A DNA stretch of 64,000 nt. Source: Rickettsiales bacterium. Lineage in GTDB: Bacteria; Pseudomonadota; Alphaproteobacteria; Rickettsiales; CANDYO01. The stretch covers positions 94,240 through 158,239 of the forward strand of contig OZ245841.1 of assembly GCA_965228885.1 (NCBI GenBank), in the 5' to 3' direction. Positions 3,160-5,332 of this stretch are shown here, piece by piece; positions within the stretch are counted from its first letter, which is position 1, and each line of letters begins with the position of its first letter. A model generated the notes under the pieces. That model did not search any database. It was given only the letters and a program-made list of their open reading frames with translations, and was not told where the DNA came from. The position numbers were made by a program, and so were the translations under genes.

Positions 3160-4080
3160 CTAATATCCTTTAAACCTCTGGCAACCAATCAGCCAAATTA
3201 TTGAACGATATTTTACACCATCTAACCAACTAAACTTTGTTTGAGTGTTAAATGTAACTGGAAGCATACTACAGGGATTTCTTCTTCTAGTTGTAATGAA
3301 TGATTCCATTCTTGCGGGGTACGGGTCATATAAATGAACATCTTGTGAATTATTATGATATAGAACACTCAAAATAGCTTGATCATGGCGATGATCTTTA
3401 AAATCTGGATATTCGTCTTTACTCGGAAGATCTGTTATAAGATCTGGATCCTCAGAATATTTAAGCCATTCTTCTATAAAAGCTCTAGACTTTTCTGTAT
3501 TACGTAACAAAATTATACTGCCATCCAACTGAATCTTATCTAAATATGAGTCATCATCATTAGCCATCGCTGCAATTACAGATCTTTTTATCATCCCACG
3601 ATTAGTATGGAAATTAGGAAATAATACAATATCATTTTCTTTTGCTAAGTCTAATAAGTCATAGATTCCATCTCTAAACACTCCTGAACTATCTGCATAA
3701 AGTAAAATATCATTCTCAGGCATCATCTTCAGTGTCTTTAATATAAGATAAGGCTTCCACAACCAAAATCCTGCACCTCTTCTTTGCGACAGGATATCTT
3801 TATGCTTCTCATAATAATCAGGTTCTATATGATGGTGCTGATAAGGTATAATAACATCAAAAACTTGATGCATTGCTGCAGATGCCACAAAATTTGTCTG
3901 ATTTTGAATATAAATTCCTTTATTAGCATATGAAATAAGCCATATCTTTTGAGAACTATAGCTGCGCCCTGTATTTTTTACCGGATATAAGGAAATATCT
4001 GCACCATAAAAATGCACCTTTAATATAACTATACAAGCCAATAAAAATATAGATAAACAAACCCAATTTCTCTTACGCAT
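3160..4080 (-). CDS. signal-anchored putative nucleotide-sugar transferase-like protein
   Basis: 306 aa. N-terminus 'MRKRNWVCLSIFLLACIVIL' (basic residues then a hydrophobic helix). Motifs 'RRGAGFWLWKPYLI', 'ILLYADSSGVF' (DxD-like position) and 'HRHDQAILSVL' resemble GT-A type transferase families. The family assignment is from memory only. Confidence 0.4.
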   Translation of the reverse strand: MRKRNWVCLSIFLLACIVILKVHFYGADISLYPVKNTGRSYSSQKIWLISYANKGIYIQNQTNFVASAAMHQVFDVIIPYQHHHIEPDYYEKHKDILSQRRGAGFWLWKPYLILKTLKMMPENDILLYADSSGVFRDGIYDLLDLAKENDIVLFPNFHTNRGMIKRSVIAAMANDDDSYLDKIQLDGSIILLRNTEKSRAFIEEWLKYSEDPDLITDLPSKDEYPDFKDHRHDQAILSVLYHNNSQDVHLYDPYPARMESFITTRRRNPCSMLPVTFNTQTKFSWLDGVKYRSIIWLIGCQRFKGY

Positions 4081-4171
4081 AAATTATAACTCTTATTGAT
4101 TTAATAGCAGTTGCAGTAATATAATATTTCACTATCATTATACATAATCAATCAACATATAAAAGACTATT

Positions 4172-5332
4172 ATGAAAGCTATCAAATTTATTTTATTCGT
4201 AGCACTCCTATTTATAATATATATCGCAGCAGCTTATGCCTCACGACAAGGCATTATTTATTATTACTCTAAGGAAGACTCGCAAAAAGATTACTCAGCA
4301 GAATATAGAAATACCACAATAAAAGACAAGTATAAAATTGTCTTTATTATTACTGCAGAAGGAGCAACAGCAGATAGAGAGGCTGGATTTAGAATGATAG
4401 AAGCCTGTAATAATCTTGGTTGGGAAGTACATATTTTTGAAGAGCTAACTAATAATCAAGATAAAATAAAAGAAATCGATCCTGATTTCATTCTCACTAA
4501 CAATTGGCGATCAGATATAGGCCTTAGAAATGTTAGGCTACCATATAAAACCTATGGCTTAGTTGCCCATCCTATAAATACTTATTTTAGTGGGTTCTTT
4601 AGTTTCACCCCACAATTTAAAGAACATAAATATCCTGAATTTAAACTATTTGATGGCTTTATAATTTCCACCCCAGAAATTAGCTTATTTAAAAAATATA
4701 TTGAATCTAAGGGGCATAAATTCTATGGATTCAAAGGGTATTCATCTGCGCAGAGCCAACCTCTTGTTGAAGTTGAGCCTAAACAAATTGTATATATGGG
4801 ATCAAATTGGGATAAAAAAAGAAAAGGCGACAAGTTTAATAAAATTTTTAAAACCTTAGCAGAAAAAGGACAGGCTGTGTTTTATGGTCCACCAAGTTCT
4901 TGGGAAAAATTAGCAGGAAATGCCTATAAAGGATTTTTTAAAGGATCCAGCTCAGCAGTGGTTGATATTATACGTGAACATGGAATTAGCTTAATGCTCC
5001 ACAGCAATCAGCATATAAAGAGCGGAACCCCAAGCAGTAGAGTGTTTGAAACCTCCTCTTCTGGCGCATTGGGAATTAGTGATATGCATCCATTTTTAAT
5101 CAAAAATTTTGGTGATAACTTCCTTTATATTAATACAGATAAGTCTGCTGACGATGTTATAAAACAAATAGAACAACATCTTAAATGGGCAAAAGAAAAC
5201 CCTAACAAAGTGAAAACTATGACAGAAAATGCTTATGATATATTTATGAATAACTTCACTCTAGAACAGATGATACTAGACATTGCCCACATGCATGAAA
5301 AAATTATGCTTGATGAACAAAACAAGAGATAA
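4172..5332 (+). CDS. CgeB-like glycosyltransferase family protein (Glyco_trans_1_2-type C-terminal domain), paralogue 1 of 3
   Basis: 386 aa. N-terminal signal or anchor 'ILFVALLFIIYIAAAYAS'. C-terminal 'SSRVFETSSSGALGISDMHPFLIKNFGDNFLYI' matches the R-x-FE...D...F pattern of CgeB/DUF3880-type transferases. Clear paralogue of 31416..32639 and 32654..33862. Confidence 0.55.
   Translation: MKAIKFILFVALLFIIYIAAAYASRQGIIYYYSKEDSQKDYSAEYRNTTIKDKYKIVFIITAEGATADREAGFRMIEACNNLGWEVHIFEELTNNQDKIKEIDPDFILTNNWRSDIGLRNVRLPYKTYGLVAHPINTYFSGFFSFTPQFKEHKYPEFKLFDGFIISTPEISLFKKYIESKGHKFYGFKGYSSAQSQPLVEVEPKQIVYMGSNWDKKRKGDKFNKIFKTLAEKGQAVFYGPPSSWEKLAGNAYKGFFKGSSSAVVDIIREHGISLMLHSNQHIKSGTPSSRVFETSSSGALGISDMHPFLIKNFGDNFLYINTDKSADDVIKQIEQHLKWAKENPNKVKTMTENAYDIFMNNFTLEQMILDIAHMHEKIMLDEQNKR

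Follow-up and report, generated by a model that had tools for sequence, protein, structure and literature searches.

Two divergent genes for membrane-anchored glycosyltransferases in a Rickettsiales genome, and the relationship of one of them to chlorovirus A111/114R

The window examined here is a stretch of 64,000 nucleotides (64 kb) of contig OZ245841.1 from a Rickettsiales bacterium, in which two divergently transcribed genes stand back to back. The minus-strand gene (3160..4080, 306 amino acids (aa), ATG start) is predicted to encode an N-terminally anchored glycosyltransferase of the GT-A fold (hereafter the GT-A protein), homologous by sequence comparison to domain 1 of the chlorovirus protein A111/114R. 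The plus-strand gene (4172..5332, 386 aa, ATG start) is predicted to encode an N-terminally anchored glycosyltransferase of the GT-B fold with a PF13524 domain (the GT-B protein). With a probability of roughly one half, the two are read here as Leloir transferases of envelope glycans, both of them attached to the inner membrane through one N-terminal helix that is not cleaved off. As a whole, the locus is an uncharacterised glycosyltransferase pair of known enzyme kinds and is otherwise ordinary.

Both genes were delimited by open reading frame (ORF) calls. The two ORFs, their coordinates and all peptide strings quoted in the sequence-only reading, an earlier reading of the same letters, were present in the translations exactly as claimed. 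Judging from their relatives, both are real genes and chance ORFs are excluded, because a word-indexed search returned 249 homologous clusters for the GT-A protein and 30 for the GT-B protein at E<=1e-3. The 90%-identity clusters of the two proteins include the consecutive accessions MCT4635791 and MCT4635792 of a metagenome-assembled genome (MAG) of a Rickettsiales bacterium. The guanine plus cytosine (G+C) content of the pair region is ~32%, the same as that of the surroundings.

The viral relationship of the GT-A protein emerged from structural matches. Those in BFVD, which contains predicted viral proteins, were much better than any PDB match (E 7e-18, with TM-scores reaching 0.65 when normalised on the query and 0.83 on the target) and included glycosyltransferases of cyanophages and giant viruses as well as the 845-aa protein M1HIA0. 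It was the size of M1HIA0 that led us to suspect the 860-aa chlorovirus protein A111/114R. The sequence of A111/114R of PBCV-1 was taken from Figure S1 of PMC7826918, with aa 1-260 as domain 1 (A111/114R-D1). BLASTP aligned the GT-A protein to this domain with 31% identity over 162 residues (E 6e-25), and hhalign of a profile of 48 sequences against the same domain gave a probability of 99.8% (E 3e-29, 187 columns). At the level of sequence comparison, the homology of the GT-A protein to A111/114R-D1 is demonstrable.

The viral domain is regarded as a putative UDP-galactose (UDP-Gal) alpha-galactosyltransferase of the capsid N-glycan core. It has been modelled on the retaining galactosyltransferase LgtC, with D85 equated with LgtC D103 and D193-Q194 with LgtC D188-Q189, and a preference for UDP-Gal hydrolysis in UDP-Glo assays, still preliminary, has been reported for it (PMC7826918). 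These viral residues, D85 and D193-Q194, align with D130 and D233-Q234 of the GT-A protein. By analogy, the latter would be a retaining enzyme of the GT8/GT34-like type transferring a hexose from a UDP-sugar, and UDP-Gal is the best guess for its donor on the grounds of this homology. D130 would be the one acidic ligand left in a degenerate DXD motif, D233-Q234 may act as a sugar-binding or catalytic pair, and the conserved basic residues K109 and R266 possibly help to neutralise the diphosphate.

The AlphaFold2 model of the GT-A protein consists of a single Rossmann-like alpha/beta/alpha domain (predicted local distance difference test (pLDDT) 89.7, predicted TM-score (pTM) 0.88). The top 50 Foldseek matches in the PDB were all of the GT-A fold (probability 0.99-1.00, E 6e-6 to 2e-4), with modest TM-scores of 0.3-0.45. 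Most of them are glycosyltransferases (glycogenin, LgtC, alpha-1,3-GalT, XXYLT1, LARGE1, ColGalT1 and UGGT) and a few are sugar nucleotidyltransferases (IspD, RmlA and GlmU). The GT-A fold assignment is therefore supported at the level of the model. A GT-A-type nucleotide-sugar transferase had been proposed for 3160..4080 by the sequence-only reading, with a hidden Markov model or structure search as the way to check it, and the proposal agrees with the model, with the Foldseek matches and with the PF05637 and PF03407 matches of relatives.

In the Pfam scan, the best match of the GT-A protein itself was PF05637 (GT34), at 13.7 bits and E 0.051, which is below the gathering threshold of 23, and PF01501 (GT8) gave no match. 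Pfam counts and conservation were determined on an alignment of 48 relatives, where PF05637 was matched by 15 sequences (best E 3.3e-9), PF03407 by three and PF01501 by a single one (E 0.0065). NCBIfam had no family for either the GT-A or the GT-B protein. The sole match of the GT-A protein in sequence searches of the solved-structure set, to the phosphodiesterase MJ0936 (E 0.12, or 6e-4 with the profile), was rejected as spurious, as it covers 75 residues only and refers to a different fold.

Residues G102, G104, W108, K109, P110, Y111, I113, D130, W205, H232 and D233 are invariant in the alignment. Those from G102 to I113 lie within the family signature RGAGFWLWKPYLI (residues 101-113; 3742..3780, minus strand). 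The degenerate DXD, Y128-A-D130-S-S (3685..3699, minus strand), has D130 in 48/48 sequences, and its third position (132) is occupied by G in 25, S in 17, T in five and D in one. The segment 'LLYADSSG', which had been associated with GT-A transferases from the letters alone, is present, but its DXD is not canonical, the third position being G, S or T in 47 of the 48. The motif HRHDQAILS (residues 230-238; 3367..3393, minus strand) retains H232 and D233 throughout, with Q234 found as Q in 42 sequences and as E in six.

The family to which the GT-A protein belongs is very large. A profile search of 1.84 billion representatives recovered 7,529 clusters (50% identity) at E<=1e-3, of which 2,204 also pass E<=1e-30. 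There are 425 stretches of the family in the species representatives of GTDB and at least 543 in the viral contigs of IMG/VR, which match the catalytic core only (query residues ~45-250). Typical short members (~230 aa) showed no Pfam match at E<=0.01, and we know of no Pfam or CAZy name for the A111/114R-D1-like family. In long members, the domain is fused to GT2, GT10 or FkbM methyltransferase domains. Among 140 immediate neighbours from ~70 genomes, the commonest families were GT2 (nine), GT10 (four), PF13524 (three), GT41, GT6 and LicD (two each), while Rickettsia copies have the housekeeping genes mnmA and ctaG as neighbours. The fusions and the neighbouring genes of the family point to glycan assembly.

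The most useful outcome of this analysis is the link to A111/114R-D1, the sole member of the family that has been partly studied. Through it, a name and a testable function are offered for a family of ~7,500 clusters which is mostly missed by domain libraries and which includes hundreds of phage and giant-virus copies, as well as copies in Rickettsia, Megaera, Legionella and Chlamydiales.

Several individual loci of the family deserve mention. In two Pelagibacter-labelled MAGs of 34% G+C (6807..10900 of locus L039 and 8983..10800 of locus L028), a GT11 gene, a GT6 gene and a family member come one after the other, each with an N-terminal hydrophobic segment. GT11 is the alpha-1,2-fucosyltransferase family and GT6 the family of the blood-group A/B transferases, and the set resembles builders of histo-blood-group-like glycans. 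In a gammaproteobacterial MAG (L060, 11011..12150), the homologue adjoins a RalF-like effector with Sec7 and RalF capping domains, and therefore this organism is probably intracellular. The MAG CAZJZY01, which is also the source of locus L006, has a second copy (L011, 10001..10896) recovered as two tblastn segments (query 6-138 and 143-304); a frameshift, a pseudogene or a fault in the assembly might each explain this. Finally, a contig with an anchored homologue in a MAG labelled Janthinobacterium lividum (L026) has a G+C content of 34.6%; since that of Janthinobacterium is far higher, the contig is probably mis-binned from a low-G+C symbiont.

The plus-strand GT-B protein matches PF13524 (Glyco_trans_1_2) with 31.4 bits against a gathering threshold of 25 (E 2.2e-7), at residues 224-368 (4841..5275, plus strand), and the same annotation is precomputed on its orthologues. 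Its AlphaFold2 model, built on 28 sequences (pLDDT 93.6, pTM 0.89), opens with a long helix spanning residues 2-37, after which come two Rossmann-like halves. Foldseek matches in the PDB were GT4-type retaining GT-B enzymes (E 8e-9 to 2e-7, TM-score 0.46-0.56), namely the M. hassiacum mannosyltransferase 7qsg, SenB, BshA, PimA, PglA and the Rickettsia africae entry 7mi0; entries 7qsg, 5d01, 2gej and 8dqd were matched at E 8e-9 to 1e-7. According to the model, the protein is of the GT-B fold and of the PF13524/GT4 type. A comparison with the sequences of PDB chains gave no sequence relative.

The invariant residues of the GT-B protein include W213, D214, R217, H277, R290, F292 and E293. Three of them (W213, D214, R217) lie in WDKKR (4808..4822, plus strand), just upstream of the PF13524 match, and R290, F292 and E293 lie in RVFE (5039..5050, plus strand), within it. 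They fit a donor-binding C-terminal half, which would contain R217, R290 and E293. When the EX7E motif was assigned by eye, E293 was invariant, the position eight residues on was G301 and not Glu, and D304 was nearly invariant.

The GT-B gene had been described as a third CgeB-like paralogue of a tandem at 31416..33862. Its membership in that family holds (31% identity, E ~1e-50). In detail, the two tandem genes, which encode N-terminally anchored proteins of 407 aa (31416..32639, plus strand, E 1e-55) and 402 aa (32654..33862, plus strand), are each 31% identical to 4172..5332, over ~350 aa with E 1e-49 to 1e-55, and they share 56% identity with each other. The term 'CgeB-like' is apt for the PF13524 domain but not for the rest of the protein; the CgeB architecture is a CgeB-type N-terminal domain plus PF13524, and no such N-terminal domain was found in the Pfam scan at E<=1, where PF13524 was the sole relevant match. 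CgeB of the B. subtilis spore crust acts in sporulation, which is irrelevant here.

The two genes are adjacent and divergent also in other genomes, which bears out the expectation that the pairing recurs elsewhere. This arrangement was found at loci L001-L003 (85% identity for the GT-A and 88% for the GT-B protein), L006 (82% and 73%), L007 (70% and 62%) and L008 (70% and 67%). The flanks differ among these loci. The M15_4/RDD/SLT genes follow the GT-B gene in the window and in L001, and in L001 an Ank-repeat gene and a LepB_N gene are inserted on either side of the pair, of which no trace was found in the window. In L007, alr lies on the same strand, 22 bp downstream of the GT-B gene, and in L006 it lies 3.3 kb beyond the GT-A gene. 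Since adjacency and orientation are kept while the flanks differ, the pair behaves as a unit within one Rickettsiales subclade. The fact that the LepB_N and Ank genes of L001 leave no trace in the window suggests that effector-like genes turn over around a stable glycosyltransferase core.

The conservation of the pairing is that of a subclade and not of the whole family, and this leaves room for another explanation, namely that the two are independent 'orphan' glycosyltransferases of different pathways, whose back-to-back layout is an inherited gene order of the subclade. In GCA_964356785 (locus L009), the GT-A gene (64% identity) stands beside LdcA, ThyX and Dcd and overlaps the end of the LdcA gene by 8 bp; a distant PF13524 gene is found 2.4 kb downstream, and the actual GT-B orthologue (55%) lies between radC and topA on a different contig. 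Two other GT-B orthologues (55-56%) are solitary, and over 70 distant GT-A loci are devoid of a PF13524 gene within 10 kb, L054 and L009 being the exceptions. Moreover, the spacer between the two genes varies from ~28 to ~135 bp, and beyond the close relatives it contains no conserved regulatory block. On the other hand, the adjacent and divergent pair persists in at least four species-level genomes despite changing flanks, short contigs of equal size hold homologues of both genes down to ~59-63% identity, and both proteins share the same unusual anchor architecture. Independence of the two enzymes is thus a possible explanation, and a clearly weaker one than that of two envelope-glycan transferases maintained together.

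This anchor architecture begins in both proteins with a basic cluster followed by a hydrophobic helix, as had been noticed from the sequence (MRKRN and WVCLSIFLLACIVIL in the GT-A protein, MKAIK and FILFVALLFIIYIAAAYA in the GT-B protein). The hydrophobic anchor of the GT-A protein, WVCLSIFLLACIVIL, occupies residues 6-20 after MRKRN (4021..4065, minus strand; Kyte-Doolittle mean 2.36), within a helix of the AlphaFold2 model at residues 3-27. The juxtamembrane motif DISLYPVKN (residues 28-36; 3973..3999, minus strand) comes directly after the anchor in most anchored relatives. Among the aligned relatives, 45/48 possess an N-terminal hydrophobic helix with a positive N-flank, followed by a conserved D-I-S-L-x-P. 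The anchor of the GT-B protein, AIKFILFVALLFIIYIAAAYA, occupies residues 3-23 (4178..4240, plus strand; Kyte-Doolittle mean 2.65). A cleavable 'AYA-S' site had been proposed for the latter, which did not hold up; most orthologues, among them P0122 (AYI-S) with 94% identity, have I, L, V or T at position -1, and the model helix 2-37 passes uninterrupted across the site. Because the site is not conserved and is spanned by the helix, the N-terminus of the GT-B protein is more likely an uncleaved signal anchor than a signal peptide.

Anchored GT-A homologues were found at 56 of the 78 genome loci. These are mostly from Rickettsiales (Rickettsia, Megaera, Midichloriaceae), Holosporales, Legionella, Chlamydiales and related MAGs. 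Clearly free-living taxa (Azospirillum, Geobacteraceae, Desulfobacterota, Planctomycetota and Flaviramulus, among others) have soluble forms which start ~45 residues later. MAGs bearing the labels Pelagibacter (34% G+C) and Puniceispirillum (51% G+C) are exceptions, in that their copies are anchored.

Similar anchors occur elsewhere in the window. In a 585-aa protein (18123..19880, minus strand), a coiled-coil-like stalk containing repeats leads from an N-terminal transmembrane helix to a C-terminal GT8 domain (PF01501, E 4e-15), whose DXD is 'YLDVDL'. Upstream of its gene and overlapping it, a 333-aa ORF (19835..20836, minus strand) has an N-terminal transmembrane helix and a weak FkbM methyltransferase match (E 0.017). 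At least five genes of the window thus encode type II-like anchored glycosyltransferases, including the three with PF13524 and the GT-A gene, and the anchored glycan-enzyme-like genes amount to six if the 333-aa ORF is counted. This recurrent N-terminal anchoring, and the question of the membrane side which it raises, is the sole surprising element of the locus.

As envelope-glycan transferases at the inner membrane, both enzymes would add sugars to a membrane-proximal envelope glycoconjugate, that is, the core of lipopolysaccharide (LPS) or lipooligosaccharide, an O-antigen-like or another surface glycan, and one Rickettsiales subclade would have retained the pair as a unit with divergent transcription. 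Donor sugar, acceptor, cooperation and membrane face are all parts of this proposal that we infer. Rickettsia imports host UDP-glucose, which is the predicted source of UDP-Gal for its LPS (PMC5615194). For Rickettsiales, the pair would therefore provide candidate enzymes for surface glycans made from host-derived UDP-sugars.

A number of points weigh against this proposal. The GT-A protein passes no Pfam or NCBIfam threshold and lacks a canonical DXD, with only D130 invariant, and the activity data of A111/114R-D1 were termed preliminary in a later review (PMC9614988). No recognisable LPS or polysaccharide cluster surrounds either gene in the window. At ~55-64% identity the genes are unlinked, with the GT-A gene beside LdcA (L009) and the GT-B gene amid housekeeping genes (L165-L167), and therefore functional cooperation is not required. 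The charges flanking the GT-A anchor are +3 on the N-side and +1 on the C-side, from which the positive-inside rule predicts, on sequence grounds, a catalytic domain in the periplasm.

If these charges are followed, the helices would be true type II anchors, and the catalytic domains would lie in the periplasm and use nucleotide sugars diffusing in from the host cytosol to modify peptidoglycan, periplasmic glycans or outer-membrane components. The same charge bias, predicting an N-in/C-out topology, is seen in most anchored relatives, and the anchored subfamily is concentrated in intracellular lineages, with free-living taxa showing mostly soluble forms. The GT8 protein of 18123..19880, the ORF 19835..20836 and the GT-B paralogues carry the same anchor, to which a stalk of coiled-coil type is added in some. 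In the vicinity there are repeatedly peptidoglycan genes (the M15_4/SLT operon, alr in L007, the LdcA overlap in L009), and the host cytosol is rich in UDP-sugars. Nevertheless, nucleotide sugars are located in the cytoplasm, and soluble relatives exist, which act in the cytoplasm in the case of bacteria, phages and chloroviruses; both facts conflict with a periplasmic placement, and no Leloir glycosyltransferase is known to work in the bacterial periplasm. Furthermore, MAGs with free-living labels such as 'Pelagibacter' and 'Puniceispirillum' contain anchored copies, and in such organisms the periplasm would offer no donors. The flank charges of the GT-B family are ambiguous, and the association with peptidoglycan is missing in the wider family and may reflect one ancestral gene order. 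Periplasmic catalysis is accordingly held to be unlikely. A PglC-like re-entrant helix, which would reconcile the anchor with a cytoplasmic domain, was also considered and is unsupported, as the anchor has no conserved helix-breaking Pro.

The layout of basic tail, transmembrane helix and GT-A domain is also that of the Golgi enzymes of GT34, GT77 and GT8, and this raises the alternative of host-directed effectors, that is, type II glycosyltransferases of eukaryotic or viral type delivered to host membranes, where they would glycosylate host targets. The surroundings offer some hints in this direction, since Ank-repeat and LepB_N genes stand on either side of the pair in L001 and the 536-aa ORF, which has no known domain, adjoins it in the window, one gammaproteobacterial homologue adjoins the RalF-like Sec7 effector, and giant viruses of protists share the family. 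However, so strongly hydrophobic an N-terminal helix (Kyte-Doolittle 2.4-2.7) would normally be inserted into the inner membrane of the bacterium itself, a secretion signal was neither seen nor specifically tested for, and the neighbours are housekeeping genes (mnmA, ctaG) in Rickettsia and glycan clusters in other bacteria. Delivery to the host is considered very improbable. The broader idea that this bacterium and other intracellular lineages carry a set of Golgi-like type II Leloir glycosyltransferases of viral or eukaryotic type (basic tail, signal anchor, in some a coiled-coil stalk, and the catalytic domain) that act outside the bacterial cytoplasm, in the periplasm on nucleotide sugars leaking in from the host or at host membranes, is regarded as a long shot; if true, extracytoplasmic glycosylation from nucleotide sugars would be a compartment not described in bacteria.

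The two genes are separated by a divergent spacer of 91 bp (4081..4171), which can be aligned with L001 and L006, the closest relatives, only; it is longer in L007 and ~28 bp long in L008. A candidate promoter-like site, TTGATT-18-TATAAT (4096..4125, plus strand), lies upstream of the GT-B gene and matches the consensus at 10/12 positions. Its -35 hexamer is retained in L001 and L006, and its -10 hexamer only partly. Promoter mapping in the spacer had been suggested earlier; a scan of the pair region gave 17 promoter-like sites against 16.6 expected from shuffles, which is no excess, and since the total equals the shuffle expectation the site is not taken as evidence.

The neighbouring genes are as described previously, with alr at 73..1152, the domain-less 536-aa ORF at 1396..3006 and the M15_4/RDD/SLT genes at 5928..8098. 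The 536-aa ORF (minus strand), beside the GT-A gene, had no Pfam or NCBIfam match. It had been regarded as an effector-like ORFan; an ORFan it is not, because an orthologue of 67% identity is found in L001, where 6969..8489 and 3500..4657 are the stretches concerned in this comparison and that of the flanking genes. Between the convergent GT-B and M15_4 genes there is a non-coding gap of 595 bp (5333..5927) with 27-28% G+C, in which searches for ORFs of >=60 aa, for Rfam matches and for similarity to L001 found nothing. This gap occupies the position where L001 carries its Ank-repeat gene.

Peptidoglycan genes are dense near the glycosyltransferases of the window (73..1152, 5928..8098, 15912..16862 and 24774..26872; likewise 7615..9865 of L007 and 9061..10918 of L009) and comprise alr, a VanY-like M15_4, SLT, two LdcA paralogues and PBP5/DacA; FtsZ is also close by. 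A peptidoglycan-linked function of the pair, suggested by alr, LdcA, M15_4, SLT and amidase genes in the vicinity, was retained only within the unlikely periplasmic reading; the wider family is devoid of such an association and the contexts are probably not independent. Possibly, the proximity goes back to an inherited gene order rather than to a link in function.

Among known systems, the GT-B protein is closest to the PF13524 family, to which CgeB belongs, and to the GT4 enzymes (PimA, BshA, PglA and the M. hassiacum mannosyltransferase), with which it shares the two-Rossmann model and a conserved Arg and Glu in the donor half. It differs in the N-terminal membrane anchor and, if the assignment of EX7E by eye is right, in having Gly (301) in place of the second Glu.

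For the GT-A protein, the nearest Pfam models are those of GT34 (GMA12/MNN10 and plant XXT; PF05637) and PF03407, and it has in common with these enzymes the type II layout of an anchor followed by a GT-A domain. It remains at 13.7 bits against the PF05637 cut-off of 23. Both families consist essentially of eukaryotic Golgi enzymes bearing a DXD. GT8 enzymes (LgtC, glycogenin; PF01501) share the GT-A fold (Foldseek E 3e-5 to 2e-4), and their Asp at the end of beta4 and their D-Q pair would be equivalent through the published alignment of A111/114R-D1 with LgtC (PMC7826918). In contrast to GT8, the TM-scores reach only 0.3-0.45, the full DXD is missing, and the GT8 D/E-Q-D corresponds to D-Q-A.

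The closest likeness is that to A111/114R-D1. The family signature RGAGFWLWKPYLI of the GT-A protein corresponds to RGFGFWCWKPFLI of the viral domain, YADSS to YCDST (Y83-C-D85-S-T), and HRHDQAILS to TRHDQSILS (RHDQSILS at residues 191-198), so that RG.G.W.WKP.LI, Y.DS. and RHDQ.ILS are motifs common to both. In both, the DXD is degenerate, with the first Asp alone retained, as has also been remarked for the viral protein (PMC7826918). Differences exist in the proposed ligand N149 of the viral domain, which aligns to D186 of the GT-A protein and, because that position is variable, is not a feature of the family. The GT-A protein is a single-domain protein with an N-terminal membrane anchor and the conserved DISLYPVKN linker, whereas the viral domain, a soluble one, stands first among three fused glycosyltransferase domains and acts in the algal cytoplasm on the glycan of the capsid protein.

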